DNA of 64,000 bases from an uncultured Solirubrobacterales bacterium. GTDB lineage: Bacteria; Actinomycetota; Thermoleophilia; Solirubrobacterales; Solirubrobacteraceae. How positions within the stretch are numbered: position 1 is the first letter of the stretch; every line of letters starts with the position of its first letter. Below the pieces are notes generated by a model. It saw only the letters and a program-made list of their open reading frames with translations, did not search any database and had not been told where the DNA came from. The DNA lies in contig CAWCIT010000008.1 of assembly GCA_963795745.1 (NCBI GenBank), positions 184,232-248,231 on the forward strand. The letters are read 5' to 3'. The position numbers and the translations under genes were made by a program. Shown piece after piece: positions 15,633 through 37,285 of the stretch.

Positions 15633-16460
15633 ATGGGAGTTCTCGACGACAAGGTGGCCATCGTCACCGGCTCCGCCCGCGGCATCGGCCTCGCCACCGC
15701 GGAGCTCCTGGCCGAGCACGGAGCCAAGGTCCTGGTCAACGACCTCGACGGCGACGCCGCCCGCGCGGCGGCCGACCAGATCGACGGCGACACGGCGGTC
15801 TTCGCCGGTGACCTCACCCGGCCCGGCGTTCCCGACGACCTCGTGGCCGCGACGATCGACGCCTTTGGCCGGATCGACATCATCGTCAACAACGCCGGCT
15901 ACACCCTCGACAAGCCGATCCACACGATGAGCGACGACTGGTTCCAGCGGATGCTCGACATCCACGTCGTCGCGCCGTTCCGCGTGATCCGCGCCGCCGC
16001 CCCCCACCTGCGCGAGCCGGCGAAGGTCGAGCGGGCCGAGGGGCGGGAGGTGTTCCGCAAGATCGTCAACGTCTCATCGGTCTCCGGCACGATGGGCAAC
16101 GCCGGACAGGCCAACTATGCGGCCGGCAAGTCCGCAGTCGTCGGACTGACCAAGACCCTGGCCAAGGAGTGGGGCCAGTTCAAGATCAACGTCAACGCCG
16201 TCGCCTTCGGCTACATCGAGACCCGGCTGACCGCCGCCAAGGACGAGTCGAACACGATGGAGATCGACGGCCAGCAGGTGCAGCTCGGGATCCCCGACCA
16301 GCTGCGCGGCATGGTCTCGATGCTGATCCCCCTCGGCCGTCCCGGCACCCCGCAGGAGGCCGCCGGCGGCGTGTTCTTCCTCTGCTCGCCCTGGTCCAAC
16401 TACGTCCACGGTCAGGTGCTCAACGTGACCGGCGGCCAGTTCACCGGGATGACGACCTGA
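15633..16460 (+). CDS. Short-chain dehydrogenase/reductase (FabG-like 3-oxoacyl reductase)
   Basis: VAIVTGSARGIG (TGxxxGxG), NNAG, S...YAAGK catalytic triad. ATG 15633 is preceded by AAGGGAGA. The tracked ORF from 15480 overlaps the ACAD 3' end. Confidence 0.9.
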   Translation: MGVLDDKVAIVTGSARGIGLATAELLAEHGAKVLVNDLDGDAARAAADQIDGDTAVFAGDLTRPGVPDDLVAATIDAFGRIDIIVNNAGYTLDKPIHTMSDDWFQRMLDIHVVAPFRVIRAAAPHLREPAKVERAEGREVFRKIVNVSSVSGTMGNAGQANYAAGKSAVVGLTKTLAKEWGQFKINVNAVAFGYIETRLTAAKDESNTMEIDGQQVQLGIPDQLRGMVSMLIPLGRPGTPQEAAGGVFFLCSPWSNYVHGQVLNVTGGQFTGMTT

Positions 16461-16466
16461 CCGCGC

Positions 16467-18026
16467 TCAGGCGAGCGGCACGGCCAGGAGCGTGGCCTGC
16501 GGCGCGGCGCTGCCCTGCGGCGTCAGCTCGGTGACGTAGGCACCGGTGGGGCTCAGCGCCGTGGTCCACAGGCTGACGTGCGTCCGCGGCGCCCGCGGAG
16601 GCGGGCAGCGACTCGGCTCGCTGCCCTGGCTCGTGTGCCCCGGCTCGTGCCCCGCGTCGCGCGAGGAGACGCCGCCGATGCGCAGCAGCACGCGCGCCCC
16701 GATGGCCGTCTGCGCCGACCCGAGGACCAAGCGCTGGTCGCAGTAGGTCGCCCGCTCGTAGAGGAGCCGGTTGCCGAGCAGCGCCGGGTTCAGGAGCTGA
16801 CTCACACCCGACTGGCGCAGCACCTGCCGCCGACCGCTCTGCAGGTCGATCTCGACGATCCGGCTCCCCCGGGGCCCGTTGATCGCGACCACCACCCGGC
16901 TGCCGTCGAGCCCGGGCCGGCCGAGGTCGACCGCCGACGGCTCGGCCGCGACCACGGTCATCGGCGCCAGGGCCGGCAACGGGAAGGCGAACAGCACCTG
17001 GCGCGCGGTCGCGTCCGTCGCCCGGACCACGAGCCAGCCGGCCGAGACCGCGAGCTGCTCGACCGTTCCCGGGACGGTGACCCGGCCGATCGTCGCGCCG
17101 GTGCCGGTGCCGGCGGCGGCGCCGGCGCCGGCGCCGGCGGTGATCACCGTCACCTGCGAGCCGGCGAGAAGCGCCAGGTTCCCGCCGCCGAGCGCCGGGT
17201 CGGCTCCGCTCAGGGCCCGCGGCGGCGCCCCCGACGCGTCGAGCGCCATTCCGGCGCCGCTGGCCGGCGCCTCCCAGGCGAGCAGGTCGCCGCTCACCGT
17301 CGGATCGGTCGCCCCGACGGCCACCGGCGTCACCGCCGCCACGGCGCTCCCCGCCGCGGGCCCGATGGCCAGCGCCGCGGCGCACAGCAGCAGCAGCGCG
17401 CCGTCGAGGCGACGCAGCCACGCCAGCACCACCGGCCGCTCGGCCATCAGCTCGGCGTAGCGGACCGCCCGCACGCCGTCGATCCACGGCGCGAGCGCGA
17501 CCACCGGCAGCGCCCGCCCGGCGCCGAAGGCCACGCCGATCGCGAGGCCGGCGCCCGGGTCGCCGAGCGCCACGCACAGGCCGGCCAGAACCCACACGGC
17601 CATGGTCAGGACGAAGGTCGTGAAGCCCAGCCCCAGCAGCACGCCGTAGAGGCCGCCGGCCACCGGGAGCGGCATCACCCGCCGCCAGTGCTCCGGCACC
17701 TGGCGGCGCACCTGGGGCACGACCCGCACCCCCCGAGCCTCGCCGACCGCCGCCGCCGCGGCGACCGCCACCGCCGCTGCCGTCGCCGCCGGCCGCGCGT
17801 CCCCGCCCCCCAGCGCCCGGCCGAGCAGGGACAGGACGGTGAAGGTCGCCGCGCCCCCGGCCACCGCGCCGGCGGCAAACGTGACGCACGCGGCGAACGT
17901 CGTGCGCCGTCCCCCGGTGTGGCCGGTCGGACCGAGCGTGCTCAGCATCGAGAACCCGCACGGCGACCAGGTGCCGGTCACGCCGGCGGCGAACGCGGTG
18001 GTGGCCAGGATGACGGTGACTAGCAC
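16467..18026 (-). CDS. DsbD_2/CcdA-type (MauF-like) polytopic membrane protein fused to an extracytoplasmic beta-propeller-like domain
   Basis: The N-terminal half has multiple TM helices with a WSPCGF motif in the first helix, as in CcdA/DsbD_2-type thiol-disulfide transporters. The C-terminal ~250 aa has a recurring strand motif (VSGDLLAW, SAGWLVVR, DGSRVVVA, GNRLLYE), as in TolB-like propellers. GTG 18026 overlaps the upstream TAG by 7 nt. The first 50 codons of the tracked ORF are a run-on into the upstream gene. Confidence 0.6.
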   Translation of the reverse strand: MLVTVILATTAFAAGVTGTWSPCGFSMLSTLGPTGHTGGRRTTFAACVTFAAGAVAGGAATFTVLSLLGRALGGGDARPAATAAAVAVAAAAAVGEARGVRVVPQVRRQVPEHWRRVMPLPVAGGLYGVLLGLGFTTFVLTMAVWVLAGLCVALGDPGAGLAIGVAFGAGRALPVVALAPWIDGVRAVRYAELMAERPVVLAWLRRLDGALLLLCAAALAIGPAAGSAVAAVTPVAVGATDPTVSGDLLAWEAPASGAGMALDASGAPPRALSGADPALGGGNLALLAGSQVTVITAGAGAGAAAGTGTGATIGRVTVPGTVEQLAVSAGWLVVRATDATARQVLFAFPLPALAPMTVVAAEPSAVDLGRPGLDGSRVVVAINGPRGSRIVEIDLQSGRRQVLRQSGVSQLLNPALLGNRLLYERATYCDQRLVLGSAQTAIGARVLLRIGGVSSRDAGHEPGHTSQGSEPSRCPPPRAPRTHVSLWTTALSPTGAYVTELTPQGSAAPQATLLAVPLA

Positions 18027-18589
18027 TTGATGCCCGTGTCGTAGTAGTAGGTGCAGAAGACCGCCCGGCCGGCGTAGCAGTAGCCGGTCAGTGCGGCATC
18101 GCCGTTGATGCGCACGGTCGAGTACGAGCAGCAGTCGAGCAGCCGCCGTACGTTGCCGCCGCAGCACCGATACCACGAGCCGTCTACGTAGGTCTTGAAG
18201 TGGAAGCGCTCCGGGATCGCGTCCAGGCAGACCCGGCTGCGCGGCGCCGGCGGCAGCGGCCGGCCGACCGGGTCGACCAGGACCTGTCCGCCCGCGTCGA
18301 CCGCGTGGCCGGCGGCGTTGACCGGCCGGCCGAGGTCGTCGACCGGATGGCCGTCGCGCGCCCGCAGCGGCCGGCCGCGGGCGTCGACCCGGGGCAGCCC
18401 CGTCGGGTGCGGGCAGCTGGCCGTCGTGTAGATGTGGCCACAGAAGTGGAAGGCCTCGGCCGCCGGCGGCCGGGCGAGCCGGCTGCCGCCGGCGGCGGCG
18501 ACGACAGCCGCCCCGACCCGCGCGATGAAGCCCCGCCGCGACGTCGTCCGCGCGACGGCCAGGCCGAGCCCGGGGTCAGCCTTCGGCAT
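18020..18589 (-). CDS. Tat-exported Cys-rich protein, methylamine-dehydrogenase-light-chain (MauA)-like
   Basis: Twin-arginine signal TSRRGFIARVGAAVVAAAGG. The mature part has 10 Cys in MauA-like spacing (FCGH..SCPHP; SWYRCCGG....LDCC; GYCYAG..VFCTYYYD..KC). Compare MADH-L ...AYRDCCG...CPC...IWCFG...YHCT, quoted from memory. A Gly/Arg/Pro/Asp-rich insert with repeated D..GRP[VL] motifs separates the Cys clusters. Confidence 0.6.
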   Translation of the reverse strand: MPKADPGLGLAVARTTSRRGFIARVGAAVVAAAGGSRLARPPAAEAFHFCGHIYTTASCPHPTGLPRVDARGRPLRARDGHPVDDLGRPVNAAGHAVDAGGQVLVDPVGRPLPPAPRSRVCLDAIPERFHFKTYVDGSWYRCCGGNVRRLLDCCSYSTVRINGDAALTGYCYAGRAVFCTYYYDTGIKC

Positions 18590-19466
18590 GGCTCAGCGCC
18601 GCTCGTCGCTCGGCGGTGGCCAGCATGCCCTCGAGTTGGCCCCCGCTGTTGAACGCCCCCTTGGCCAGGACGGTGCCGGCCCGGTCGAGGACCAGCGCGT
18701 ACGGGCTTCCCGGAACTTCGAGCGCCCGCCAGACGTCGTCGTCGGCGTGCTCGTCGAAGCTCAGCATCGACACGAACGGGTCGCGCCCCAGCCAGTCGAG
18801 GGCCGGCTCCAGCGCCCGGCAGAGGGGGCAGCCAGCGGAGGAGAAGACGGCCAGCGCGAGCTTGACGTCGCCGTCGAGGGCGAAGCGTCCGATCAGCGGG
18901 ACCCGGCGACCGAGCGGCGGCCCCTCGTCGGCCAGCTCGAGCGCCAGCTGCGGTCCGAGACGCAGGCGCAGCTCGCCGATCTCCCGGGCGAGCGCGACGG
19001 TGACCACGCCGACGGCGGCCACACCGACCAGGGCGAGGACCAGGCCGGCGGCCAGCCACCCCACGGTCGAGACCGGGGCCCGCGTCACCGACGGCAGCCC
19101 GGCGTACGCGGCCGCCAGGGCGAGATCGCGGGCCACCGCCCGGCGGCTGACCGTCGCCCGCGCGCCGAAGCACGCGCACGGCGCGCCCGTCCCCCCGCGG
19201 CCGATGACCACGGCCAGCGCGAGCCCGAAGGCCGCCATCGCCGCGGCGGCGGCGTAGGCGCCCGCGCGGCTGCCGGCGGCCACGCCCGCGGCCAGCCCCA
19301 GCTCGGCGGCGACGAGCGCCGCCAGCGCCGCCGCCTGCGCGCGCCGCGGCCGGATCCCGAACGTGGCCAGGGCGGACGCGCTGCGCCCCGGGCTGGTCAG
19401 CTTGGCGGCGGCGCTCGCCGCCAGCACGCCGGCGAGCAGCCAGGCCGCAGCCGCATGCGGGCTCAC
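18576..19466 (-). CDS. MauE/DoxX-type membrane protein fused to a thioredoxin-like (MauD/TlpA-like, CPLC) domain
   Basis: The N-terminal TM domain has the MauE hallmark GAPCACFG. The C-terminal domain has LAVFSSAGCPLCRALEP (CxxC) and a thioredoxin-fold-like end, YALVLDRAGTVLAKG. GTG 19466 was chosen because the giant upstream gene stops at 19546. The tracked start at 19628 would overlap it. Confidence 0.7.
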   Translation of the reverse strand: MSPHAAAAWLLAGVLAASAAAKLTSPGRSASALATFGIRPRRAQAAALAALVAAELGLAAGVAAGSRAGAYAAAAAMAAFGLALAVVIGRGGTGAPCACFGARATVSRRAVARDLALAAAYAGLPSVTRAPVSTVGWLAAGLVLALVGVAAVGVVTVALAREIGELRLRLGPQLALELADEGPPLGRRVPLIGRFALDGDVKLALAVFSSAGCPLCRALEPALDWLGRDPFVSMLSFDEHADDDVWRALEVPGSPYALVLDRAGTVLAKGAFNSGGQLEGMLATAERRAALSHAEG

Positions 19467-19545
19467 GCCCCGAGACCTCCCGCACCACCGCCGGCCATCG
19501 GCCCGAGGATAAGGCATACCCCCGGCTTCGCCGGCGGCGATCGGC

Positions 19546-22500
19546 TCAGGGAGCCTTGGCCAGGTAGCTGCGCCCCGCCCGCAGCACGATCTGGCGCCGG
19601 GTGCGGAGGTTGGTGACCGCGACCACACCGCGCTGCACGGCCGTCAGCGTCCCGTCGCAGCGATCCGTCGTCGTCCACATCGTCCCGCGCACCGTCGCCG
19701 CGCTGTAGCGCCCGCGGGTGCGGAACTTCCCCTTGACGTTCGCCCGCAGCAGGGCCAGGACCGTCTTGGGCAGCGCCTTGGCGGCCGCCGTCTGCGCCTG
19801 GCCGACCTGGCCAACCTTGCCGACCTTGGGGACCTTGCCCGCCGCACACCTGCGCGCCGCGGTGCTCCGGAGCACGAGCCTCAGCTCGCTCAGCCCGCGC
19901 TCCTTGCGGTTCTGGAGGAGCTTGAACAGGCCGCCGCCGAAGTTGCCCGCCTGCGTCTGACCCTTGGTCGCGGTCGCCGTGGTCAGCCGGGCCACCCCGC
20001 TCGTCGTGTCGAAGATCGTGCCCACCGGCAACTGGCGCGCCTCGGTCAGCGGCACGAAGCCCACGCCCTTGGCCGCGCTGGTGTGCGCCGAGGCGACGTG
20101 GCCGGTCCCCGGGACGAGCACGTAGACGACCCCGCTGACCGTCGCCGCGTCGACCGACTTGCCGAGCACCGGCGGACCCGGCGGCGGATCGACCGCCGTC
20201 TGGAACGCGGCGTCCCCGCCGCTCGCCACGCCGAGCGCGTTGCTGGCCACGGCCTTCACGTGGTAGGCGCTGTTGGGCAGGAGCCGGGCCACCACGGCCT
20301 TGACCACGTGGTCGGCGAAGTCCGACCCGACGACCTGCTCCGGCGTCGTCGCCGCGTAGGAGACCGCCGCCGCGGTCGCCGGCGCCCCGCTGGCCACGGT
20401 GTACTCGAAGTGCATCGTCGTCGGCGCTCCGCCCGGGTTGATCACGGCCGAGAACTCGACGCTCGTGCTGTTGATGACCTTCGGCGGCCCGGTCACCACC
20501 GTCGCCGCGCGCGGTGTCCCGGTGGGACCGCTGGGACCACTCGGCCCGGCGGGACCGGGGGGACCGGGCGAGCCGCCGACGTAGGTGAACTGGTCGCCCG
20601 CGCCGGCCGGGCTCGTGCCCGACGGTGTGGTCACGGTCACGTCGACGGTGCCCGTGCCGGCCGGCGCGGTGGCCGTGATCTGGGTCGGCCCGTCGACGGT
20701 GAACTGCGCCGGCGCGGCGCCGAAACGGACGAAGCTCGCGCCGGTCAGCCCGGTCCCGGTGATCGTGACCACCGTCCCCCCGGCCGCCGGCCCCGACGTC
20801 GGGCTGATCGCGGTGACCGCCGGCGCCGGCAGCGGGGTCCCGTAGGCGTAGTGGTCGGCGGCGCCCTTCGTGCTCGTCCCGGAGGGCGTCGTCACGGTCA
20901 CGTCGACGGTTCCGGTCCCGGGGGGCGCGACCGTGGTCAGCTGGGTTCCGTCCGCGCTCACGCCGACCACGGGTGCCGGCGCCGAGCCGAAATGCACCGA
21001 GGTCGCGCCGGTGAAGCCGGTGCCGCTGATCACCACGCCGTTGCCGCCGGCCGCCGGGCCCGACGCCGGCGTGACCGCGGTCACCAGCGGTGGCCCGGTG
21101 GGGGGCGCGACGTAGGCGTAGGCGTCGGGCGCCGTGGTCGGGCTCGTCCCGGCCGGGGTCGTCACCCGGACGTCGACGGTGCCGCTGCCGGCCGGCGCGG
21201 TCGCCGTGATCTGGCTTGGGCTCGTGACCGTGAACGCGGTCGCCGGCGTTCCCCCGAAGCTGACGCCGGTCGCTCCGGCGAAGCCCGTCCCGGTGATCGT
21301 CACCGTCGTGCCCCCGGCCTGCGGCCCGGAGATCGGGCTCAGTCCGGTGACCGCCGGCGCCGGCGCGCTGACCACGACCGCCTCGGTCGGGTCCGCGCAG
21401 GCCGTGGTCGAGGTCGGGTAGTTGCCGTCGCCGCTGTAGGTCGCGACGACCCGGTAGGTGCCGGCCAGCGTCGGCGTGAAGCTGTCCGACGCCGCCGCGG
21501 TGCCGCCCCGGGTCAGTGCGTTGGTCGAGGTGAACACGGGCGCCGCGCTGCACGTGGCGTCGGCCGGCCCGAAGACCGCGAACGTCACCGTGCCCGTCGG
21601 TGCCGCCGCGCCCGCCGGCGCCGGCCCGAGCGTGGCGGCATCGTTGAACGACGCGCCGAGCGCGATCGCCTCCGGCCCGGCGTCGGTGGTCAGCGCGAGC
21701 GCCGTCGCCCGGCCGACCGCGGCCGCCTCGGCCGGATCGGCGCACGCCGATGTCGAGGGGGTGTAGTCGGCGTCGCCGGCGTAGCTCGCAATCACCCGGT
21801 AGGTCCCGGCGCTCGACGGCGTGAAGCGGCCCGAGGTCGCCGAGTTCCCGTCGGCGCCGAGCGGGTTGATCGACGTGAACACCGGCGTGGCCGCGCACGT
21901 CGGATCGCCCGGGCCGTAGACCTGGAAGGTCACGCTCCCGCTCGGCGCCGCCGCCCCGGCCGGCACCGGGCCGAGGCTGGCGGTGTCGGCGAACGAGCCG
22001 CCGAGGGCGAGCGAGGCCGGGGCCACCGCGGTCGCCAGGACCAGCGGCGCCCGACCGACGGTGACCGTCTCGCCCGGATCGCCGCACGAGGACGCGGACG
22101 GCAGGTAGTTGGCGTCGCCGCCGTAGGCGGCGACCACCCGATAGGCGCCGGTCCGCGCCGGCGTGAAGCTGCTCGACGTCGCCGACCCGCCGCTGAGCGC
22201 CGCGGTCGCCGTCAAGGCCGGCGCCGACGCGCAGGCCGGGTCGGAAGGGCCGTAGACGTTGAACGTCACCGTCCCGGTCGGCGCCGGCGCCCCGCCCGCC
22301 GGCGGTGCGACCGTGGCCGTGTCGTGGAAGGCGCCGCCCAGGGCGATCGTCGCCGGCGCGACCGCCGTGGCCACCGGCAGGCTCGCCCGGCCGACCACCT
22401 CGGCCTCGGCCGGATCCGCGCATGTCGACGCGGACGCGAGGTAGCTCGCATCGCCGGAGTAGCTCGCGATCACCCGGTAGGTCCCGGGCGCGGTCGGCGA

Positions 22501-24732
22501 GAAGTCGGAGGAGACCGCGGTCGTCCCGGAGGGGTCGACCGCATTGGTCGAGGTGAACAGCGGCGTCGCGGCGCACGTCGGGTCGGCCGGGGCGTAGACG
22601 TTGAAGGTCACGGTGCCCGTCGGCGGCCCCCCGCCCGCGGGCGGGCTGAGCGTCGCGGTGTCGTGGAACGCTCCGCCCACGGCGATCGGAGTCGGCGCGA
22701 CCTGGGTGGCGATGGCGAGCCCCGTCCGGGCGACGGTCACGCGTTCGCTCGGGTCCCCGCACGACGAGGTGGCCGAGTTGTAGTTCGCGTCGCCGCTATA
22801 GGTCGCGACCACCACGTAGGTGCCCGCCGCCGCCGCGGTGAAGGCGCCGGAGGTCACCGACGGGCTGTCGACGAGCGGGACGGTGGAGCTGAAGACCGGG
22901 GACGAGGCGCACTGGGAGTCGTTCAGGTAGACGTCGAAGGTGACCGTCCCGGTCGGTGGCGGCGCGCCCTCGAACGGCGAGCCCACGGTGGCGCGGTCCT
23001 GGAAGCTGCCGCCGACGGCGATCGCGGCCGGCGTGGCCAGCGTGGTGAGCGTCGGCTGCGCCGGATTGACCGTGACCGACTCGGCCGGGTCGCTGCACAC
23101 CGACGCCGAGGGCTGGTAGTTCGCATCGCCGCTGTAGGTCGCGATCACCTGGTAGGTCCCGGCGGCGGTCGGGAAGAAGTTCGTCGACGCCGCTGAGGTT
23201 CCCGCGGCGTTGACCGGATTGGTCGAGGTCAGGACCGGGCTCGCGGTGCATGCCGGGTCACCCGGGCCGTACACGTCGAAGGTCACCGACCCGGTCGGCG
23301 CGGCTGCCCCGGCGACGGCGGGTCCGAGCGTGGCCGTGTCCTGGAAGTTGGCGCCGAGCGTGATCGAGGCTGGCGCGACCTGCGTGGCGATGGCCAGCGG
23401 CGCCGGGCTGACCGTGACCGCCTCGGCCGGGTCGGCGCAGAGCGAGGCCGACGCCGTGTAGTTGGCGTCGCCGCTGTAGCTGGCCACCACCCGATAGGTG
23501 CCGGCGCCCGTCGGCGTGAAGTCGCTCGACGCGGCCATCGTCCCCGACGCGGTGAGCGGGTCGGTCGAGGTGAAGACGGGCGCCGCCGCGCACGACGGGT
23601 CCGCCGGGCCGTAGACGTTGAAGGTGACCGTCCCGGTCGGCGCCGGCACCCCGGCCGGGGCGGGACCGAGCGTCGCGTCGTCGTGGAAGGTGGAGCCCAG
23701 GCCGATCGTCTCCGGCGTCACGTCGGTCGTCACGGCCACCGTCGCCGGGCCGACGCTCACCGACTCCCCCGGGTCGCCGCACGTCGTCGAGGTCGGGCCG
23801 TAGTTGGCGTCGCCGCTGTAGGTGGCGATCACGTCGTAGCCGCCCTGGGTGGTCGGGGTGAACGGGTCGGAGACCGCCGTGGTCCCGGCGGCGTCGACCG
23901 GGTTGGTCGAGCTGAAGACCGAGGAGGTGTCGCAGGAGCTGCCGGTCGGATAGACGACGAACGTGACCGTCCCGGTCGGCGTCGCCGCCCCCGCCGTCGG
24001 GCTCAGGGTCGCCGTGTCCTGGAACGGCGAGCCGACGCCGATCGCCGGCGGGGCGACCTGCGTGGCGATCGGGAGGGCGCCCGGCGAGACCGTGACCTGG
24101 TTGGACGAGCTGCCGCTGCCGGTGACCTGGTCGGTCGCGGTGCCTTGGGCGAAGCCGGCCTGTTCGGTCTGGATGCCGCTCGCGTCGGGGTTCGCGTCGC
24201 CGGCCGGCATCCGGACCACGTCGACGGTGAAGTCGATCACGCACGTCGTGTTCCCGGAGCCGCTGGCCGGACCGAGGACGACGGGGGCGGACGGCGTGAA
24301 CTGAACCTTGCCCTGCAAGGCGTCGACCACCGCGATCGTGAACGTCGTCCCGGCGCAGGCCGTGCCCGCCTCACCGACGCCGGTCGCGCTGAGGCGCAGC
24401 ACCCCGGGGTCCGTCCGCCCCGGCGGGCAGTCGGCGCCGGAGGGGAAGGTGGTGCAACTCGGGACGAGGGTGATCGTGCCGAGCGTGACCGGCAGGGTGT
24501 CCTCGGGCGGGCTCGACTGGTTGGAGATCGTCAGCGTCTCGAGAACCGCGGACTGCCCGACCCTGAGGGAATTGCCACTGGGGATGCTCGGAGCGGCGCT
24601 CAACCCGACGGTGGCCCAGGCCGGGCCGGCGGCCACGCCGAGGAACGCGCCGAGAACCACCAGCGCCAGTACGACCGCGCGCCAGCGGAGAAGCCCCACC
24701 CCGTCGCCGCCCCCCTCCCGCATCGCCCGCAT
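19546..24732 (-). CDS. Giant secreted surface/adhesin-like protein (1728 aa): signal peptide, Cys-containing N-domain, 8 Ig-like (Big_3-type) repeats, 3 IPT/TIG domains, a short collagen-like GXY run, an FN3-like domain and a conserved C-terminal module
   Basis: Signal peptide: RWRAVVLALVVLGAFLGVAAGPAWA. There are eight ~113-aa repeats, each ending YSGDANY..S..C.DP.E.V.V. Three IPT/TIG units have the form SGP.AGGT.VTITGTGF.GA..V.FG...TVDVTVTTP.GTS. The collagen-like run is GPPGPAGPSGPSGPTG. GAGGGA lies 7 nt upstream of ATG 24732. Confidence 0.85.
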   Translation of the reverse strand: MRAMREGGGDGVGLLRWRAVVLALVVLGAFLGVAAGPAWATVGLSAAPSIPSGNSLRVGQSAVLETLTISNQSSPPEDTLPVTLGTITLVPSCTTFPSGADCPPGRTDPGVLRLSATGVGEAGTACAGTTFTIAVVDALQGKVQFTPSAPVVLGPASGSGNTTCVIDFTVDVVRMPAGDANPDASGIQTEQAGFAQGTATDQVTGSGSSSNQVTVSPGALPIATQVAPPAIGVGSPFQDTATLSPTAGAATPTGTVTFVVYPTGSSCDTSSVFSSTNPVDAAGTTAVSDPFTPTTQGGYDVIATYSGDANYGPTSTTCGDPGESVSVGPATVAVTTDVTPETIGLGSTFHDDATLGPAPAGVPAPTGTVTFNVYGPADPSCAAAPVFTSTDPLTASGTMAASSDFTPTGAGTYRVVASYSGDANYTASASLCADPAEAVTVSPAPLAIATQVAPASITLGANFQDTATLGPAVAGAAAPTGSVTFDVYGPGDPACTASPVLTSTNPVNAAGTSAASTNFFPTAAGTYQVIATYSGDANYQPSASVCSDPAESVTVNPAQPTLTTLATPAAIAVGGSFQDRATVGSPFEGAPPPTGTVTFDVYLNDSQCASSPVFSSTVPLVDSPSVTSGAFTAAAAGTYVVVATYSGDANYNSATSSCGDPSERVTVARTGLAIATQVAPTPIAVGGAFHDTATLSPPAGGGPPTGTVTFNVYAPADPTCAATPLFTSTNAVDPSGTTAVSSDFSPTAPGTYRVIASYSGDASYLASASTCADPAEAEVVGRASLPVATAVAPATIALGGAFHDTATVAPPAGGAPAPTGTVTFNVYGPSDPACASAPALTATAALSGGSATSSSFTPARTGAYRVVAAYGGDANYLPSASSCGDPGETVTVGRAPLVLATAVAPASLALGGSFADTASLGPVPAGAAAPSGSVTFQVYGPGDPTCAATPVFTSINPLGADGNSATSGRFTPSSAGTYRVIASYAGDADYTPSTSACADPAEAAAVGRATALALTTDAGPEAIALGASFNDAATLGPAPAGAAAPTGTVTFAVFGPADATCSAAPVFTSTNALTRGGTAAASDSFTPTLAGTYRVVATYSGDGNYPTSTTACADPTEAVVVSAPAPAVTGLSPISGPQAGGTTVTITGTGFAGATGVSFGGTPATAFTVTSPSQITATAPAGSGTVDVRVTTPAGTSPTTAPDAYAYVAPPTGPPLVTAVTPASGPAAGGNGVVISGTGFTGATSVHFGSAPAPVVGVSADGTQLTTVAPPGTGTVDVTVTTPSGTSTKGAADHYAYGTPLPAPAVTAISPTSGPAAGGTVVTITGTGLTGASFVRFGAAPAQFTVDGPTQITATAPAGTGTVDVTVTTPSGTSPAGAGDQFTYVGGSPGPPGPAGPSGPSGPTGTPRAATVVTGPPKVINSTSVEFSAVINPGGAPTTMHFEYTVASGAPATAAAVSYAATTPEQVVGSDFADHVVKAVVARLLPNSAYHVKAVASNALGVASGGDAAFQTAVDPPPGPPVLGKSVDAATVSGVVYVLVPGTGHVASAHTSAAKGVGFVPLTEARQLPVGTIFDTTSGVARLTTATATKGQTQAGNFGGGLFKLLQNRKERGLSELRLVLRSTAARRCAAGKVPKVGKVGQVGQAQTAAAKALPKTVLALLRANVKGKFRTRGRYSAATVRGTMWTTTDRCDGTLTAVQRGVVAVTNLRTRRQIVLRAGRSYLAKAP
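21367..24081 (-). repeat. Array of 8 diverged ~340-bp coding repeats (Ig-like domain repeats) within the giant protein gene
   Basis: A periodic protein motif, PTGTVTF.VYGP.DP.C....VFTSTN...GT.....F.PT..GTY.V.A.YSGDANY, recurs about every 113 aa between residues ~218 and ~1122. Confidence 0.8.
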
Positions 24733-24844
24733 GCCGCTGTCCCTCGCGCCTGTCCCGCCAGCCGATCGATCCCCAAGCCGGGCGCCGCAGAGGCGCCCTG
24801 CGCGATCATACGCCCGAGCGGAGCGACCGGCGCCGACGCCCCGA

Positions 24845-27800
24845 TCAGGCCGCCTTGGCCAGGTAGCTGCGCCCGGCCCGCAGCACGATCTGGCGCCGGG
24901 TGCGGCAGATCAGTGACCACGACCACACCGCGCTGCACGGCCGTCAGCGTGCCGTCGCAGCGATCCGTCGTCGTCCACATCGTGCCGCGCACCGTCGCCG
25001 CGCTGTAGCGCCCGCGCGTGCGGAACCTCCCCTTGACGTTCGCCCGCAGCAGGTTGAGGACCGTCTTCGGCAGCGCCTTGGCGGCCGCCGTCTGGGCGGT
25101 GGCGGCGTTGCCGGCCGGTGGACACCGTTTGGTCGCGCTGCTCTGGGCCACCAGCCGCAGCTCGCTGAGGCCGCGCTCCCGGCGGTTCTGCAGAAGTCGG
25201 AACAGACCGCCGCCGAACTCCCCGGACTGCACCCGGCTCCGGGTGGCGGTCGCCGTGGTCAGCCGCGCCACGCCCTTGCTGGCGTCGAAGATCGTCCCCA
25301 CGGGCAGCTGGCGCGCCTCGGTCAGCGGGATGAAGCCCACGCCCTTGGCCGCGCTCGCGTGGGCCGCGGCGACGTGCCCGGCGCCGGGGAGGAGCACGTA
25401 GACGACGCCGCTGACCGGGACGGCGTTGAACGTCCTCCCGAGCAGCGGGGGCGGCGGTGGGGGATCGGTCGCCGTCTTGAACGTCGCATCCGCGCCCGGG
25501 GTCACGCCCTGGGGATTGGTGGCCACCGCCCGAACGTGGTAGCTGCTGTTCGGGAGCAGGCCGGCGACCCGGGCGGTGACCACGTGGGCGGCGAAGTCGG
25601 ACCCCACCGTCTGCTCCGGCGTGCGCGCGGCGTAGGTGATCGCCGCCGCGCTCGCCCCGGCCGGCGCCACCGCCGCGTACTCGAAGTGCATCGTCGTGGG
25701 CAGGCCCTCGGGGTTGATCGTCGCGGTGAACTGGGCGCTCGAGCTGCTGAGCACCTGCGGCGGACCGACCTGCAACGTCGGCGCCTGGTGTCCCGAACTG
25801 GCCGACCCGACCGCCCCGCCCGCGGTCGCGGCACCGGTCGTCGTACCGCCGGTGGTGGGGGCGCCAGTCGTCCCGCCGCCGGTCGTCCCGCCGCCGGTCG
25901 TCCCGCCGGTCGTCGCACCGCCGGTCGTCCCGCCGCCCGCCGTGCCAGCGCCGGTCGACTGCGGCGGGACGTAGGCGTACCGGTCGGCGGCGCCGGCCGC
26001 GCTGGTCCCGGCCGCTGTCGTCACCGTCACGTCGACGGTCCCCGTCCCCGGCGGGGTGAGGGCTACGAGCCGCGTGCCGGCGGCATCGACGCTCAGGATC
26101 GTCCCGGGCCTCGAGCCGAAGCTGACCGCCTTCGCCCCGCCGAGGCCAGTGCCGAAGACGACGACGCCGTCCCCGCCCGCGGTCGAGCCCGACGCCGGCG
26201 CCAGGCTCGCGATCACCGGGCCGCCGGCGGGCGGACCGTGGGTGACCGTGGTTCCGGGCGCGACGCACGAGGGATCGTCGGCTCCGGTCCAGGTCAGCTC
26301 CACCTGGACCGACCCGGGCGCTCCGGTCTCACCGACCAGGGTGATCAGGAACTGAGGCAGGCCGTTGGCCGTCGCGAGGTTGAGCCCGGTCAGGTCGACC
26401 GCGCCCGTGCTGTCGAGCGGCCGCGAAGGCGCGTTCGGGATCGGATTGCCGTCCCCGTCCTCGAAGGCGACCGAGCCGCTGGTGTAGGTGCCGGGCGCGG
26501 GCGAGAGCACCTTCAGCGAGGTGAACTGGCTTGGCATGCACAGTGAGCTGGGCACGACGACGCCCGAGGCCAGGACGCGGATCGGCCCCTGGCCGCAGCC
26601 GCTCCCGGTGAACGCATCGAAGTTCTGGATCTGACCCGAGCCGCCGTCGGCGTTGACCCAGATGCACGTCGGGCGCTGCGGATCCGGGTTGACCGTGTAG
26701 AGGAAGCTCAGGTTGCTGAGGCTCTTGGGGAAGTTGGCGCACGCCGCGGAGGTGCTGTAGTCGTAGCAGAGGACATGGTCGGTGTTGCCGTCGGGGACGT
26801 AGACGCGGGGGCCCAGCACGAAGGCCGGGCCGTTCCAGCCGTCGGTCGGGGTGATCACGGTGGCCAGTCCGGCCGGGGCGGCGACCGGCGCGCCGGCCAG
26901 GCTGAAGCAGGGGGTGTTGGGGCTGGGCAGGCAGAGCCCGGTGACGGTGCCGGAGGCGCTCAGGAGCGGGAAGGGCGCCCCGTAGTTGGAGGCGTAGGAG
27001 AAGTCGAGCTTGACCGGCCAGGAGCCCGAGCAGTTGCCGCCGGCGGTGGCGTCGTAGCAGGCCAGCTCTTCGGTGCCGCCGACGGTGACCGGGACGATCA
27101 CCTGGCCGGCGATCGCCGCCGTGGCCGGCGCGGGGAAGGTCTGATTCGTGAGGGTCCCGCTCCCGACCGAGACCGCGTACGGCTGCCCGGCGCAGGCGGC
27201 AAAGGTCGTCAGGTCGAAGCAGAGCAGCTTGTTCTCGGCGCCGGTGACGGGGGCGCCGTCGACGTAGTTGAAGGCGTACCAGCGCGTGCCCACCACCACG
27301 GGATCGCTTATCCCACTCGTTCCTGGCGACGCCTCGCCGGCCCCGGTGAGCGCGGTGAACCCGCAGAACGGCTTGGGCGGAGTCGCCGCCGCCTGCGCCG
27401 TGTCGATGCAGACGACACCGGCTGTCTGGTCGTTGGTCCGGGTGGCGAACACGTACAGGTGCCCGCTGGCCTGGTCGAGCCAGAGCCCGGGTTGGCTCGA
27501 GGTGGCGAAGTCGTTGCCGTTCGCGTCGGTGACGGTCTCCGGCGCCCAGCACGGCGAGGCGTCGGTCTGGAGATGGCAGGCGACCTGAAGCGTGCCGGCG
27601 TGGTGGAAGACGTTGTAGACGGCGGTCGGCGTCATCGCGACCGCCCATCCGTCACCGCCGCCGCTGCCGGCGAAGGTCGACGCCGGGGGCACGGGGATGG
27701 TCACCGTGGCCGTGTAGGTCGCCTGCGGCGCGCCCGCCGCCCACGCCGTCTCGACGGACCCGACCGATCCGACGCCGAGCGCCGCCGCGACCGACGCCAT

Positions 27801-27869
27801 CAACAGCCGGAGGCGTCGGCGCCGCCTGCGAATCGGTTGTGAACTTCCTCTCTCCACGAAGGCCCCCAC
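24845..27869 (-). CDS. Large secreted protein: signal peptide, 7-fold Cys-pair repeat (propeller-like) domain, IPT/TIG, Gly/Thr linker, FN3-like domain and the same C-terminal module as 19546..24732. It has an apparent 1-nt frameshift near the 3' end
   Basis: The tracked ORF 24600..27869 matches its paralog up to ...TAVQRGVVVVTDL, then diverges. Alignment to 19546..19625 shows one extra base near 24905. Reading past it in the other frame restores RTRRQIVLRAGRSYLAKAA and a stop at 24845-24847. Signal peptide: RRRRRRLRLLMASVAAALGVGSVGSVETAWA. The start could be GTG 27869 or the GTG 4 codons downstream, which is preceded by AAGGTGGGGG. Confidence 0.75.
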
Positions 27870-27928
27870 CTTCTCGACGCGGCCACGGCCGAGCCTGAGG
27901 GCCGACCGGAGATCTGTCGATTGACCGG

Positions 27929-27957
27929 ATTCTACGCCCCGGGCGGGGGCGGCGCAA
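27929..27957 (-). promoter_or_regulatory. Candidate sigma-70-type promoter for the 24845..27869 gene (-35 TTGCGC, 17-nt spacer, -10 TAGAAT)
   Basis: The minus strand reads cTTGCGCcgcccccgcccggggcgTAGAATccggtc. This is about 55-60 nt upstream of the GTG start, in the only sizeable intergenic gap upstream of the block. Confidence 0.4.
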
Positions 27958-27968
27958 GCGGTCGGCGG

Positions 27969-28745
27969 CTAGCGCTGGGGGAGGGCGAGCCGGCCGCGCC
28001 GGCGGCGGGCTCGGCGGGCGATCGCGACGTGGCCGTGCTCCTCGAGCGCCTCGTAGAGGCCGCGAATCGCCGCGAAGATCTCGTCGGCCACCTCCTGCTG
28101 GCGCTCGCGCGAGGCGCCGGGCTGCGCGTCGAAATGGAGCGCGTCGCCGTAGTGGACGCTGACCCGGGGGAAGCTCAGCCGCTTCCAGTCACGGATCTTG
28201 GCCGACCCGTGGATGGCCACCGGCACCACGGGGGCCCCGGACTCGAGCGCCAGGCGACCGATGCCCGGCTTGGCGCGGTCCTGGAGCTCGCCGGTGCGGG
28301 AGCGTCCGCCCTCGCAGTACATGGCGACCACGCCGCCGCGGGAGAGGATCGTCTCGGCGGTCACGAACGCCTCCTCGTCGCGCGCGCCCCGGCGGACGGG
28401 AAAGACGCCGCCGTGGCTGTAGACCCACTTCATCGGGCCGGTGAACAGCTGCGACTTGGCCATGAACCGGACCTTGCGGCGGATATAGCAGCCGAGGAGG
28501 AAGTGGTCCATGAACGAGAAGTGGTTGGGCGCGAGGATCGCGTGACCTCGGGCGGGGACCTTCTCGGCGCAGATCGACCGCGTCCGCAGCAGCGTGTAGG
28601 CGTAGAGCGAGGTGATCACCCGCACGACGGTGTACACCCAGTTGGGCTCGCGCGTGCGCGACCGCGCGTGGAAGCGGTCGAAGTACTCCTTCGGCCGCGG
28701 GTCCTTGTAGACCTGCTCCTTCATCTGGACCGTCGGGCCGCTCAT
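27969..28745 (-). CDS. plsC: 1-acyl-sn-glycerol-3-phosphate acyltransferase
   Basis: The HX4D motif in LAPNHFSFMDHF, the FMAK motif, and the YCEGGRSRTG and PVVPVAIHG blocks, 258 aa. Confidence 0.9.
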   Translation of the reverse strand: MSGPTVQMKEQVYKDPRPKEYFDRFHARSRTREPNWVYTVVRVITSLYAYTLLRTRSICAEKVPARGHAILAPNHFSFMDHFLLGCYIRRKVRFMAKSQLFTGPMKWVYSHGGVFPVRRGARDEEAFVTAETILSRGGVVAMYCEGGRSRTGELQDRAKPGIGRLALESGAPVVPVAIHGSAKIRDWKRLSFPRVSVHYGDALHFDAQPGASRERQQEVADEIFAAIRGLYEALEEHGHVAIARRARRRRGRLALPQR

Positions 28746-28776
28746 CCGGAAATCGTACGCCGCGCGCCGCCGAAAG

Positions 28777-30252
28777 TTACCCGCGCCCGGGCGTGACGTG
28801 CCCGAGCGCGGCGTGCCAGCCGGCCAGGAGCTCGTCCCGCTCGGCGGGGTCCATCCGCGGCTCGAAGCGGGCGCCCTCGCGCCAGCGGGAGCTGACCCCG
28901 TGCTGCGTCCAGAGGCCGGCGCCGACGCCGGCCAGGCAGGCGGCCCCGTAGGCGGTGGTCTCGGGGAGCCGCGGCAGGACCACCGGCACCGCGAGGACGT
29001 CGGCCTGGAACTGCATCAGCCAGCGGTTGACGCTCGCCCCGCCGTCGGCCCGCAGCTCGGGCAGCGGCGCGTCGCCGGCGGCCTCGATCGCGCGGATCGC
29101 GTCGACCGTCTGGTAGGCGATCGCCTCGAGCGCCGCCCGCGCCAGATGCGTTCGGCCGGTGCCCCGGGTCAGGCCGACGATGGTCCCCCGGGCGTGCGGG
29201 TCCCAGTGGGGCGAGCCGAGGCCGGTGAGCGCCGGGACGAAGTAGACGCCGTCGTTGGACTCGAGCGATCCGGCCAGGGCCTCGGTCTCGGCCGCGGCGG
29301 CGATCACGCCCAAGCCGTCGCGCAGCCACTGGACGGCGGCGCCGGTGACGAAGATCGCCGCCTCGAGCGCGTAGACGAGCGCGTCGCCGATCCCCCACGC
29401 GACGGTGGTCAGAAGGCCGCGGGCGGGCGGCGGCGGGCGGCGGCCGGCGTTGATGAGGACGAACGACCCCGTCCCGTAGGTGTTCTTGCCCATGCCCGTC
29501 GCGAGGCACGCCTGGCCGAAGAGCGCCGCCTGCTGGTCGCCAGCGACGCCGCAGACCTCGACTTGGTGGCCATGGAGCGCGTTCGGGCGGGTTCGGCCGT
29601 GTGGTCCAGCGCTGGGACGGACCTCGGGCAGCGCCCGTTCGGGCACGCCGAACAGGTCGAGCAGTTCGGGGTCCCAGGCGCCGCGGCCGATGTCGTAGAG
29701 GAGGGTGCGCGAGGCGTTCGACGGGTCGGTCGAGAGCTCGCCGGTCAGGTTGAACACGAGCCAGGCGTCGATCGTCCCGAACACGGCGCGACCGTCGCGG
29801 ACGCGCTGGCGCAGGCCGTCGACGTTCTCGATCAGCCACTCGATCTTCGTCGCCGTGAAGTACGGATCGAGCACGAGCCCGGTCCGGGCGCGAACGAGCT
29901 CCTCGTGCCCGGCCGCCCGGAGCTCCTCGCACCGGAACGCCGTCCGCCGGTCCTGCCACACCAGCGCCCGATGGAGCGGCTCGCCCGTCGCCGGATCCCA
30001 GACGACGACGGTCTCGCGCTGATTGGTGATGCCGACGGCCTCGAGCTGGCCGGGGCGGACGCCGGCGTCGTCCAGCGCCTCGCCGGCCACGGCCTGCGTG
30101 ACGAGCCAGATCTCCCGGGCATCGTGCTCGACCCAGCCGGGGCGGGGGAAGTGCTGAGCGAACTCACGATAGGCGCGCCCGACGAGCTCGCCGTCGAGGT
30201 CGAAGACCAGGCACGTCGTGCCGCTGGTCCCCTGGTCGATGGCGAGGATCAT
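28777..30252 (-). CDS. glpK: Glycerol kinase
   Basis: MILAIDQGTSGTTCLVFD..., GWVEHDA.EIW, GITNQRETVVVWD, and C-terminal FGQ.C...G..KNTYGTG and ELRADGGAS.N..LMQFQAD: canonical FGGY/GlpK motifs. ATG 30252 was verified. The tracked ORF adds a 92-aa false extension. Confidence 0.95.
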   Translation of the reverse strand: MILAIDQGTSGTTCLVFDLDGELVGRAYREFAQHFPRPGWVEHDAREIWLVTQAVAGEALDDAGVRPGQLEAVGITNQRETVVVWDPATGEPLHRALVWQDRRTAFRCEELRAAGHEELVRARTGLVLDPYFTATKIEWLIENVDGLRQRVRDGRAVFGTIDAWLVFNLTGELSTDPSNASRTLLYDIGRGAWDPELLDLFGVPERALPEVRPSAGPHGRTRPNALHGHQVEVCGVAGDQQAALFGQACLATGMGKNTYGTGSFVLINAGRRPPPPARGLLTTVAWGIGDALVYALEAAIFVTGAAVQWLRDGLGVIAAAAETEALAGSLESNDGVYFVPALTGLGSPHWDPHARGTIVGLTRGTGRTHLARAALEAIAYQTVDAIRAIEAAGDAPLPELRADGGASVNRWLMQFQADVLAVPVVLPRLPETTAYGAACLAGVGAGLWTQHGVSSRWREGARFEPRMDPAERDELLAGWHAALGHVTPGRG

Positions 30253-32484: not shown

Positions 32485-32799
32485 ATGGCTCGTCCCCCGA
32501 TGTTCAGCGTGCAGGAGAAGCAGCGGATCGTGCTCAGCGTGTTGCGTGGCGAGGCGAGTGTGGCGGAGGCCGCGCGGCGCAACAAGTGCTCGGAGACGTC
32601 GATCGCGAAGTGGCGTGAGCAGTTCGTGCAGGCCGGCCTGGGTGCGCTGGCGGCGGGGGCGGAGCGGGGACCGTCGGCGCGCGAGGCGCAGCTCGAGCGC
32701 GAGCTCGGCGAGGTGACGCTGGCGCTGGGTGAGGCGCATGTCGAGTTGCGGCTGCTCAAGCGCGAGGGGGCGGGTTTCGCTTTGAGGAGCTTGAAGTGA
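32485..32799 (+). CDS. IS3-family transposase OrfA (HTH)
   Basis: MARPPMFSVQEKQRIVLSVLRGEASVAEAARRNKCSETSIAKWREQF, followed by a leucine-zipper-like tail. AAGGAGA lies upstream of ATG 32485. Confidence 0.85.
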   Translation: MARPPMFSVQEKQRIVLSVLRGEASVAEAARRNKCSETSIAKWREQFVQAGLGALAAGAERGPSAREAQLERELGEVTLALGEAHVELRLLKREGAGFALRSLK

Positions 32800-33713
32800 T
32801 CCGCGTGGAGGCGGGCCTGAGCGTCGAGCGGTTCTGCGCTGTCGCGGGGATCGCGAGGCCGACGTGGTATCGCTGGCGAGAGCGGGCGCTCGGCGGTCAG
32901 CCGGTGAAAGGGCCGTGGCCGCAGCCAACGCGTGATCGGGTGAGCGCGGTCGTGTTGGCGTACGCGCTGCGCTATCCGGCGTGGGGGCATCGAAAGATCT
33001 GGGCGTTGACCGTCGCCGATGGGCACCGCGTCAGCCAGCGCACGGTGCATCGCATCCTCGACGAGCACGGCCTGATCCATCCTGGCCGCTACCAGGCGCA
33101 GCGGCGCGAGCTCGCCCAGGCGCGCAGGCAGACGTTTCATGACCCGCCGACCAGGCGCAACCGGGTCTGGCAGACCGACTTCTCGGAGTTCGAGACCAGG
33201 GCCGGCGGGACGTGGCAACTCGGCGGGGTCGTTGATTACGTCGCGAAGTTCTGCCTGACGTGCCCGGTGACCGCGACGAAGACGTGGCGGGACGCCGTCG
33301 GCGCGCTCGAGGCCGCCAGGGAACGCGCCGGCGAGGTTCTCGGCCACCAGTTGATCGAGGATCTCGTCGATCGCCCGACGGGTGAGCTTCACCCGATCGT
33401 CGTCGTCAGCGACAACGGCCCGTGCTACAAGGCCGGCGCGTTCGCGCGCTACATCGCCTCGCGCCCGGAGTTCGAACACGTCCGCACCCGCCATCGCAGT
33501 CCGCAGACCAACGGGGTGATCGAGCGCTGGTATCAGTCGGTGAAGTACGAGCACCTCTACCTGCACGAGATCGACGACGGCCCCGCGCTCGCCGAGCAAG
33601 TCGCTGGCTACCAGCGCATCTACAACGACGAGCGGCCACACGAAGCGATCGACTGGGCCCGGCCACGCGAGCGCTACACCCAGACCCCCGCCCAACCCGA
33701 CCAGCCGGCATGA
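32796..33713 (+). CDS. IS3-family transposase OrfB (rve/DDE integrase core)
   Basis: WQTDFSEF...VVDYVAK...VVSDNGPCYKA...HRSPQTNGVIERWYQSVKYE: a DD(35)E integrase core. GTG 32796 overlaps the OrfA stop (GTGA). Confidence 0.9.
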   Translation: MIRVEAGLSVERFCAVAGIARPTWYRWRERALGGQPVKGPWPQPTRDRVSAVVLAYALRYPAWGHRKIWALTVADGHRVSQRTVHRILDEHGLIHPGRYQAQRRELAQARRQTFHDPPTRRNRVWQTDFSEFETRAGGTWQLGGVVDYVAKFCLTCPVTATKTWRDAVGALEAARERAGEVLGHQLIEDLVDRPTGELHPIVVVSDNGPCYKAGAFARYIASRPEFEHVRTRHRSPQTNGVIERWYQSVKYEHLYLHEIDDGPALAEQVAGYQRIYNDERPHEAIDWARPRERYTQTPAQPDQPA

Positions 33714-34244: not shown

Positions 34245-34282
34245 GAGGAGCAGTGCGAGCCGTCGCGCTCCGGTCGGCTCCG

Positions 34283-35048: not shown

Positions 35049-35176
35049 GGTCCGAGCGCGATACAGGCCGACCCCGAAGCATCCATTTGCTGGGCTGAAT
35101 CCTATCGCGTCTGGAAGCTCGCTAACCCTAAGTAAACGGGGATCAGCTAGCTAAAACTCTAACTATCCTGGGGCGG

Positions 35177-37232: not shown

Positions 37233-37285
37233 CCACAGTCCCCCGTCGCCCCGTCCCTGTCGCCACCGTCCCGGTCGCGGTTGCC

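Follow-up and report, generated by a model that had tools for sequence, protein, structure and literature searches.

This analysis concerns a cassette of three genes, designated P3, P4, and P5, at the end of a minus-strand gene block in a 64,000-nucleotide (nt) stretch of DNA (hereafter, the window; G+C content approximately 74%) from an uncultured Solirubrobacterales bacterium (assembly GCA_963795745.1, contig CAWCIT010000008.1, positions 184,232–248,231). The block originally described comprises positions 16467 to 27957 of the window. Within it, as originally predicted, five consecutive genes run from 27869 to 16467 on the minus strand: gene A (24845..27869) and gene B (19546..24732), which encode giant secreted proteins, followed by P3 (18576..19466), P4 (18020..18589), and P5 (16467..18026). 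The gaps previously put at approximately 110 and 80 nt were measured as 112 nt between genes A and B (taking the end of gene A at 24845) and 79 nt between gene B and P3 (taking the P3 start at GTG 19466), whereas P3 and P4 overlap by 14 nt and P4 and P5 by 7 nt. The original prediction described the last three genes as a thiol-redox trio and proposed that they form a dedicated oxidative-folding or isomerization module for the two giant proteins, with all five genes constituting one functional locus. The comparisons reported here lead us, with moderate confidence, to regard P3-P4-P5 as a self-contained cassette, kept throughout Thermoleophilia, whose relatives are the mauF, mauE, and mauD accessory genes in methylamine dehydrogenase (MADH) clusters (mau) and which matures its own P4, and to regard the giant proteins as its lineage-specific neighbors.

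One genome per species was scanned with P4, which yielded 438 relatives, and the best 80 species-level loci were analyzed. The nearest relatives of the window were metagenome-assembled genomes of Solirubrobacterales, and the farther ones belonged to Gaiellales and other Thermoleophilia. In essentially all complete loci among these 80, P3, P4, and P5 occurred in the same order and the same orientation, and when all open reading frames (ORFs) were clustered against one another, these three were the only gene clusters found in more than 26 loci. Each locus carried a single cassette, which was found in numerous unrelated genomic settings in both Solirubrobacterales and Gaiellales. In our interpretation, selection acts on the trio as a unit, including P4, its constant companion.

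P3 encodes a MauE domain with four transmembrane (TM) helices that is linked through a fifth TM helix to a MauD-like thioredoxin domain. Its true start is most likely GTG 19466, judging from a GGGAGG Shine-Dalgarno sequence located 9 nt upstream, with ATG 19517 as an alternative; the residue numbers given below are counted from the ORF start at 19628. The MauE domain (ORF residues 59–176) matched PF07291 with an E-value of 1.8e−15 and 57.8 bits, against a cut-off of 27, and its active-site set is complete, consisting of P-C151-A-C153-F-G, K76 in TM1, and E109 in TM2. The motif P-C-(G/A)-C-F-G, K76, E109, and the CxxC of the thioredoxin domain were kept in 71–79 of 79 loci; when only ungapped sequences were counted (approximately 74), CXC-F-G, K76, and E109 were found in 67–73 of them, and the thioredoxin CxxC (C267-P-L-C270), in a domain preceded by a TM helix, was invariant (79/79 loci). 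The thioredoxin domain matched mauD of Paracoccus denitrificans in a tblastn search (26.7% identity over 161 amino acids [aa], E = 4e−11), and P3 matched the MauD model TIGR02661 (E = 7.8e−7, 28.7 bits) short of its equivalog cut-off of 188.6. By these scores, P3 is a MauD-like homolog and not a MauD equivalog. The thioredoxin-like/MauE fusion noted originally was therefore confirmed, as a MauE-MauD fusion with PF07291 above its cut-off and a CxxC domain. A recent preprint reports that MauE replaces DsbB in Escherichia coli, that the TM3-TM4 loop holds its active site, a CXC with Phe-Gly after it, that TM1 and TM2 have a conserved Lys and a conserved Glu, respectively, that approximately 8.2% of MauE proteins carry a fused thioredoxin-fold domain, and that the maturation of MADH needs both MauE and MauD, the latter handling the six MADH disulfides (bioRxiv 10.64898/2026.03.05.709764). 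MauE is a DsbB-like enzyme that generates disulfides de novo at the CXC site and probably passes electrons to quinone, and P3 as a whole is a predicted oxidative-folding catalyst, whose CxxC thioredoxin domain would lie on the outer face of the membrane.

P5 (519 aa) corresponds exactly to database gene call P0391 and has 1,901 homologs, which are without annotation; it gave no Pfam or NCBIfam match at E ≤10, and a sequence search of PDB was empty. Its N-terminal domain (17331..18026, minus strand) consists of six TM helices, and its C-terminal domain (16467..17330, minus strand) was modeled as a six-bladed β-propeller. In the AlphaFold2 model (predicted local distance difference test score [pLDDT] of 88, predicted template modeling score [pTM] of 0.73), the first TM helix is broken at W20-S-P-C23, and the propeller comprises 23 strands in residues 233–517. 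With Arg-rich loops 1, 3, and 5 on the inner side of the membrane, the propeller is predicted to be extracytoplasmic. When the whole model was used as the Foldseek query, the listing was filled by propeller matches, with TolB, acylaminoacyl-peptidase, and other propellers as the top PDB structures (E-values of approximately 1e−6 to 1e−7). The TM domain proved to be homologous to MauF: hhalign comparison with P. denitrificans MauF gave 98.8% (E = 1.2e−16, 172 columns, 36% identity), and that with Indioceanicola MauF gave 98.2% (E = 3.5e−14), whereas the P5 TM profile scored only 0.14% in a negative control with MauE, another polytopic membrane protein. P5 and MauF have the invariant motifs WSPCG-x-S, PQ-x-R-x-QVP, LYG-xx-LGL, and GR-x-LP in common, which read W20-S-P-C23-G-x-S, PQxRRQVPExWRR, LYGxLLGLGF, and GRALP in P5. 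The TM domain and the propeller occurred in one ORF in nearly all loci, and a tblastn search of plasmids with the TM domain gave no match at database scale. To our knowledge, MauF has been found only in mau clusters, and it is reportedly needed for the MADH light chain.

MauF itself matches no Pfam or NCBIfam model, and P5 consequently looked like an orphan, which explains why it had been taken for a DsbD_2-type reductant transporter. We rejected assignment to DsbD, CcdA, or DsbD_2: none of 15 P5 members matched any of these families at E ≤10, and the TM domain has only the single motif Cys, C23, which was present in 51 of 66 loci and had no second conserved Cys beside it. As P5 is not a DsbD-type reductant transporter, no isomerization arm is evident. 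Some P5 homologs are longer and carry extra propellers of the Tricorn/PD40 type after the common part (L002, 10570–13659, 1,029 aa; L039, 10213–12849).

P4 (189 aa) carries a twin-arginine translocation (Tat) signal with the motif TSRRGF (TIGR01409, 21.9 against a cut-off of 16.7), followed by a mature domain of 143 aa with ten cysteines. In the alignment, Cys 49, 58, 120, 141, 142, 152, 153, 170, 178, and 188 were invariant, and the protein is marked by the motifs FCGH..CPHPTGLPR and WYRCCGG and by a Cys as the final residue. Among its 2,252 homologs, none is named and none has a Pfam domain, and the identity of P4 across orders is 60–89%. Sequence searches found no PDB or Pfam match, and an exact-sequence database look-up returned no record. 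P4 also lacks a thioredoxin-like CxxC. Of the three genes described as a thiol-redox trio, the middle one encodes no recognized redox enzyme. A representative search for the P4 family, the returns of which were mostly fragments and mis-framed translations, also yielded P0242, a 453-aa polypeptide in which MauE, thioredoxin, and P4 domains are joined and the RR motif is retained. If P0242 is not a sequencing artifact, it is a Rosetta-stone fusion that ties P3 to P4. P4 residues 63–118 (window positions 18250–18400) form a run of short D-x-x-G-R-P-(V/L) units, and the P4 profile matched 11–17 tandem DxxGRLID-like units in four giant unrelated proteins (P0272, P0316, P0356, and P0382), one of which looks eukaryotic. 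Such units in P4 and in the giant proteins probably represent a common β-hairpin repeat without homology.

The two proteins encoded upstream of the cassette share a C-terminal module of approximately 320 aa (Cmod), which is 70.5% identical between them and comprises an FN3-like domain, a domain with weak similarity to FecR, and an invariant Cys pair, so that each of the two proteins has one pair in addition to those described below. Cmod was found on at least 773 proteins, in which the passengers are TIG, Big_3_5, FN3/PhoD-like, PKD, SdrD-B, and peptidoglycan-binding domains; A and B belong to a large family of secreted Solirubrobacterales proteins with a common C-terminal module. An assignment of Cmod to FecR was not retained, as only 3 of 22 members matched (best E = 0.04), which makes FecR a weak lead at most. 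The B protein (1,728 aa) consists of a signal peptide, an N-terminal domain, eight Big_3_5 repeats (24057–21358; Pfam, 1.4e−46), three TIG domains (21357–20533; Pfam, 6.2e−35), and Cmod (20517–19549), all on the minus strand. The one Cys pair per Ig-like repeat that had been noted was found in each of the eight Big_3_5 repeats, with the two residues approximately 51 positions apart and a period of approximately 114 aa, and these pairs were retained in the homologs of loci L003 and L009. The A protein consists of a signal peptide, an N-terminal Cys-pair domain, one TIG domain, a Gly/Thr linker, and Cmod. Its N-terminal domain holds 16 Cys in 7–8 pairs, in agreement with the seven pairs first counted, and six of these are C-x7-14-C pairs spaced every ~55 aa; no homolog of this domain was found in any of the 80 related loci.

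Gene A cannot be read as one product over 24845..27869, as had been assumed. This interval is 3,025 nt long, which is not a multiple of 3, and therefore the coordinates do not describe a single reading frame; the continuous ORF actually extends to 24600. The conserved Cmod tail ..AGxSYLAxAP was kept in all 20 aligned homologs and is out of frame here, indicating that gene A is frameshifted. The +1 frameshift site lies at 24896..24911 (minus strand), with an extra C near 24906 in the sequence CTGCCGCACC, and the conserved last 19 aa, RTRRQIVLRAGRSYLAKA, lie in another frame that ends at the stop codon TGA (24847–24845). Three-frame translation and a tblastn search, which placed residues 304–322 of the gene B Cmod at 24907..24851 in that other frame, led to this assignment. 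The shifted ORF is 245 nt longer and overlaps the start of gene B. The frameshift is either a pseudogenizing mutation or a sequencing or assembly error.

A Cmod protein was encoded directly upstream of the trio in approximately 6 of the 80 loci (L001/L006, L003, L007, L009, L010, and L012), all of them with at least 75% P4 identity; it was absent from this position in L008, L011, and all of the more distant loci, and approximately 70 other species-level loci had an intact trio without any Cmod protein within 10 kb. In the subclade concerned, genes for an FGGY kinase and an acyltransferase come first, then those for one or two Cmod proteins and the trio, followed by a convergent pair of genes for a short-chain dehydrogenase/reductase and an acyl-CoA dehydrogenase. 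The upstream slot is variable, holding one or two proteins with differing passenger domains, and the upstream Cmod protein of L001 (1,039 aa) has only 6 Cys. A and B are lineage-specific and sit in a variable slot flanked by the acyltransferase gene on one side and the cassette on the other; they are recent neighbors of the cassette. The original proposal would have been refuted had the adjacency been conserved in no related genome; it is conserved in six close relatives and not more widely, and only the trio is universal, which speaks against a dedicated module of five genes forming one functional locus. Co-occurrence of Cmod with MauE genes was likewise limited: many loci had the trio without Cmod, and none of the four other Cmod genes examined on long contigs (0/4) had a MauE neighbor. 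At three of these four loci, the Cmod gene adjoins a conserved set of genes encoding a GAF-domain Ser/Thr kinase, a CHASE2-adenylate/guanylate cyclase, and a second Ser/Thr kinase (L083, 6001–12722; L084, 6001–13296; L086, 6001–12617). Cmod may serve CHASE2 sensors as a ligand or partner rather than act as a wall anchor.

The co-directional run does not begin at the promoter proposed for it. An acyltransferase gene (27969..28745, minus strand) lies directly upstream of gene A with a gap of 99 nt, and beside it, farther upstream on the same strand, is an FGGY kinase gene; both are syntenic in relatives. The −35/−10 candidate that had been called good, TTGCGC-17 nt-TAGAAT (27957..27929, minus strand, read directly from the sequence), is present in this 99-nt gap, but it agrees with the consensus at only 8 of 12 positions and falls under the consensus threshold of our promoter scan. 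A scan of window positions 16000–29000 found no terminator-like sites. RNA folding of the 84-nt spacer between gene B and P3 (19467..19550, minus strand) predicted a long, imperfect hairpin of −51.5 kcal/mol (z = −2.83; 2 of 200 shuffled sequences were equally stable), in which the GGGAGG ribosome-binding site of P3 is base-paired. The hairpin is not kept in relatives such as L001, where the gap between the upstream Cmod gene and P3 is 2 nt. Possible roles are attenuation, RNA processing, or occlusion of the ribosome-binding site.

Compared with the mau clusters of P. denitrificans and Methylobacterium and with the aromatic amine dehydrogenase clusters (aauBEDA), the cassette contains homologs of MauF, MauE, and MauD, together with a beta-propeller protein and, straight after the MauD function, a Cys-rich protein of approximately 188 aa with a Tat leader (P4), in the place of MauA or AauA. 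The canonical mauF-B-E-D-A cluster was located on plasmid 1 of P. denitrificans, and all five of the tryptophan tryptophylquinone (TTQ) amine-dehydrogenase clusters examined had the light-chain gene immediately after mauD (order E-D-A). The two fusions in the cassette, E+D and F+propeller, join the functions of genes that are adjacent in mauFBEDA. In contrast, the mature domain of P4 is not detectably MauA or PF02975, the six-bladed propeller is not detectably MauB, the order is (E-D)-A'-(F-B') instead of F-B-E-D-A, the cassette lacks linked MauG, amicyanin, and cytochrome c genes, and its hosts are Thermoleophilia (Actinomycetota), whereas mau is found in Proteobacteria. F, E, and D thus have homologs in the cassette, whereas MauA and MauB have analogs in P4 and the propeller by position and architecture, without demonstrable homology. 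Separately, three sites with similarity to MauA-like light chains (32% identity) were found on the Thermomicrobium roseum megaplasmid (L088, NC_011961.1, 484628–499071). One of these is annotated as "methylamine dehydrogenase light chain"; the surroundings encode hypothetical proteins of approximately 400 aa, with no annotated mauE, mauD, or mauF nearby. This region may represent a divergent TTQ-type system outside the Proteobacteria.

Other known systems resemble the cassette in part. P3 has the CXC-F-G, TM1 Lys, TM2 Glu, and CxxC thioredoxin fusion of the MauE pathway in the preprint, which treats MauE as a stand-alone generalist and describes neither a MauF-propeller protein nor a ten-Cys Tat partner (bioRxiv 10.64898/2026.03.05.709764), whereas here it is strictly co-inherited with both. 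As in the DsbB-DsbA and VKOR-thioredoxin systems (in actinobacteria, VKOR/DsbA and MdbA), a four-helix membrane enzyme would re-oxidize a thioredoxin-fold oxidase outside the cytoplasm, and both may be parts of one polypeptide; however, those systems belong to another membrane protein family and have no obligate client or propeller neighbors. The P5 membrane domain resembles DsbD, CcdA, and DsbD_2 in its six helices and in the Pro-Cys motif of a broken first helix, but it has one conserved Cys at most, none in the other half, and is homologous to MauF instead. In candidate clusters detected with decRiPPter in Streptomyces, which are also Actinomycetota, mauE and mauD adjoin genes for small Cys-rich precursors (at least 8 Cys) outside methylamine metabolism; unlike P4, these are short peptide precursors in putative clusters for peptides that are made by the ribosome and modified post-translationally (RiPPs), and no MauF-propeller partner has been reported there (PMC7794033).

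From the homologies, motifs, fusions, synteny, and distribution, all of which were observed directly, we infer who would oxidize whom. By analogy with MauA in mau clusters, the dedicated client of the cassette is most likely P4, with MADH itself and the Streptomyces candidate clusters (PMC7794033) as precedents for MauE/MauD beside a Cys-rich client. In the simplest mechanism, P4 would be exported via Tat, and the thioredoxin domain of P3 would then introduce its five potential disulfides and be re-oxidized in turn by the CXC/quinone site of the MauE domain. The MauF domain of P5 would aid export or hand-over, the propeller would dock mature P4, and a membrane-anchored P4-P5 complex would result. 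The giants A and B may well be oxidized by P3 as general or bystander substrates, without the cassette being dedicated to them.

Several observations weigh against the view that the cassette matures its own P4 as mau clusters mature MauA. The hhalign match between the leaders of P4 and the MauA family (94%, E = 1.2e−7, 29 columns), which speaks for the comparison with MauA, may largely reflect the generic Tat consensus. A homology of P4 with MauA was rejected for the mature domain, which gave 0.25–0.5% in hhalign (0.25% against 2bbk_L, to which our MauA query was 100% identical, and 0.47% between profiles), and none of 25 P4 members matched PF02975 at E ≤10. The MauA/PF02975 light chain has 12 Cys and the two Trp residues of TTQ; no TTQ tryptophans could be aligned in mature P4. 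The AlphaFold2 model of P4 reached a pLDDT of only 55.9 (25 sequences in a shallow alignment with an effective number of sequences of 1.8, the family being too uniform to deepen it), and the best Foldseek match to it had an E-value of 1.3. Identification of the P5 propeller as MauB was likewise rejected (hhalign, 0.6%; six blades against the seven of MauB; no Pfam hit). The Cys of the MauF motif, C23, is absent from a subclade of 15 of the 66 loci (L031, L035, L036, L048, L050, L051, L061, and others), which have WSP-SLS instead of WSPCGFS at a position approximately 600 nt past the P4 stop codon; as it is lost there, this Cys cannot be universally essential. Neither MauG, nor amicyanin, nor a cytochrome was found among the conserved neighbors or the scanned ORFs of the window, and we know of no biochemical function established for MauF. 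In some close relatives, the upstream Cmod gene is separated from P3 by 2 nt or overlaps it, so that the gene for a giant protein is likely to be co-expressed with P3 in the closest relatives. Furthermore, the preprint on MauE holds that it is a generalist oxidase and not a client-specific factor (bioRxiv 10.64898/2026.03.05.709764).

This generalist view is compatible with the main rival explanation, in which Thermoleophilia use the cassette as their housekeeping machinery for oxidative folding. P3 would then be the equivalent of DsbB/DsbA or VKOR-thioredoxin for the whole exported proteome, with P4 and P5 as accessories (for instance, an isomerase or disulfide carrier and a propeller that holds substrates) and A and B among many clients. 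The occurrence of one copy per locus in unrelated contexts in two orders agrees with such a role, as do the complementation of E. coli dsbB by MauE, its proposed generalist nature, and the parallel between MauE-thioredoxin and VKOR-thioredoxin fusions (bioRxiv 10.64898/2026.03.05.709764). Conserved Cys pairs in the secreted proteins of these organisms would provide the substrates. However, a general oxidase needs no two additional genes that are strictly co-inherited and translationally coupled with it, one of which encodes a homolog of MauF, which is not known outside mau clusters; P4 lacks a thioredoxin-like CxxC; and the order of E, D, and a small Cys protein mirrors the client arrangement of the TTQ clusters. 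We therefore consider the housekeeping role unlikely, though a serious candidate. The explanation proposed originally, in which the five genes are one locus and operon and the cassette is dedicated to the oxidative folding or isomerization of both giants, draws on the co-directional genes with short gaps and no terminator-like site between them, on the many regular Cys pairs of A and B and the one in Cmod, on the oxidase type of P3, and on the adjacency in six close relatives, with a 2-nt gap or an overlap in some. P3 does support the kind of module that was envisaged; that the giants are its dedicated clients was not borne out. Approximately 70 of the 80 loci keep the trio without a Cmod protein, the slot varies in gene number and passengers, the N-terminal domain of A occurs in no relative and the L001 protein has few Cys, all four other Cmod genes lack a MauE neighbor, and a stable hairpin separates gene B from P3. 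We consider this explanation improbable.

P4 might also be a secreted, Cys-knotted effector (bacteriocin-like, RiPP-like, or signaling), cross-linked by P3, with P5 as its exporter, immunity protein, or receptor. The Streptomyces candidate RiPP clusters offer a precedent in pairing mauE/mauD with precursors of at least 8 Cys (PMC7794033), and P4 is small, Cys-rich, and without a known fold. Nevertheless, P4 combines a Tat signal with a mature domain of 143 aa and lacks a leader-core architecture, and no protease or ABC exporter was found among the conserved neighbors. Antagonistic effectors are usually far less conserved than P4 is across orders. An effector role is thus very improbable.

Outside the block, the window contains further features. 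Positions 32700–41000 hold three transposase genes (IS3-type rve, DDE_Tnp_1_4, and IS110 family) at a G+C content of 0.68–0.70, compared with approximately 0.74 for the window, and probably constitute an insertion-sequence island. The G+C content rises to 84.5% at positions 4001–6000, and an 874-aa ORF on the minus strand (3914–6538) combines a zinc-finger motif of anti-sigma-like type (HHLDECLDC) with long tandem repeats rich in Ala, Pro, and Arg, a single TM helix, and a tail rich in Pro and Ala. Also on the minus strand (46241–50350), a 1,369-aa fusion protein joins a molybdopterin oxidoreductase (Fe4S4, Molybdopterin, and Molydop_binding domains) to a reductase part with a pyridine-nucleotide-disulfide reductase, a Rubredoxin_C domain, and a BFD-like 2Fe-2S domain; by its domains, it looks like an assimilatory nitrate reductase joined to an NAD(P)H reductase.

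Returning to the cassette as one that matures its own P4, we put forward, tentatively and with considerable doubt, that P4 and the P5 propeller form an unrecognized membrane-anchored, extracytoplasmic enzyme or redox protein built on the principle of MADH, with a small Tat-exported subunit rich in disulfides that docks on a propeller and is matured by MauF/E/D homologs, but with a different catalytic centre. That centre might be a metal site formed by the invariant C-G-H...C-P-H motif, or a new protein-derived cofactor that draws on the invariant W138-Y139-R-C-C or Y169-C170. If this is true, the MauF/E/D machinery would be ancient and general for such subunits, and not specific to TTQ. P4 and P5 also define two families of approximately 2,000 members each that are currently without annotation. 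With respect to the giant proteins, gene adjacency in a single genome overstated the functional link, as they are interchangeable cargo in a variable slot. The finding of a MauF domain fused to a propeller and tied to a MauE-MauD fusion and a ten-Cys protein in hundreds of Thermoleophilia genomes extends the F/E/D trio beyond MADH, and the cassette offers a tractable second system in which to approach the role of MauF and the question of whether MauE is client-specific or a generalist.

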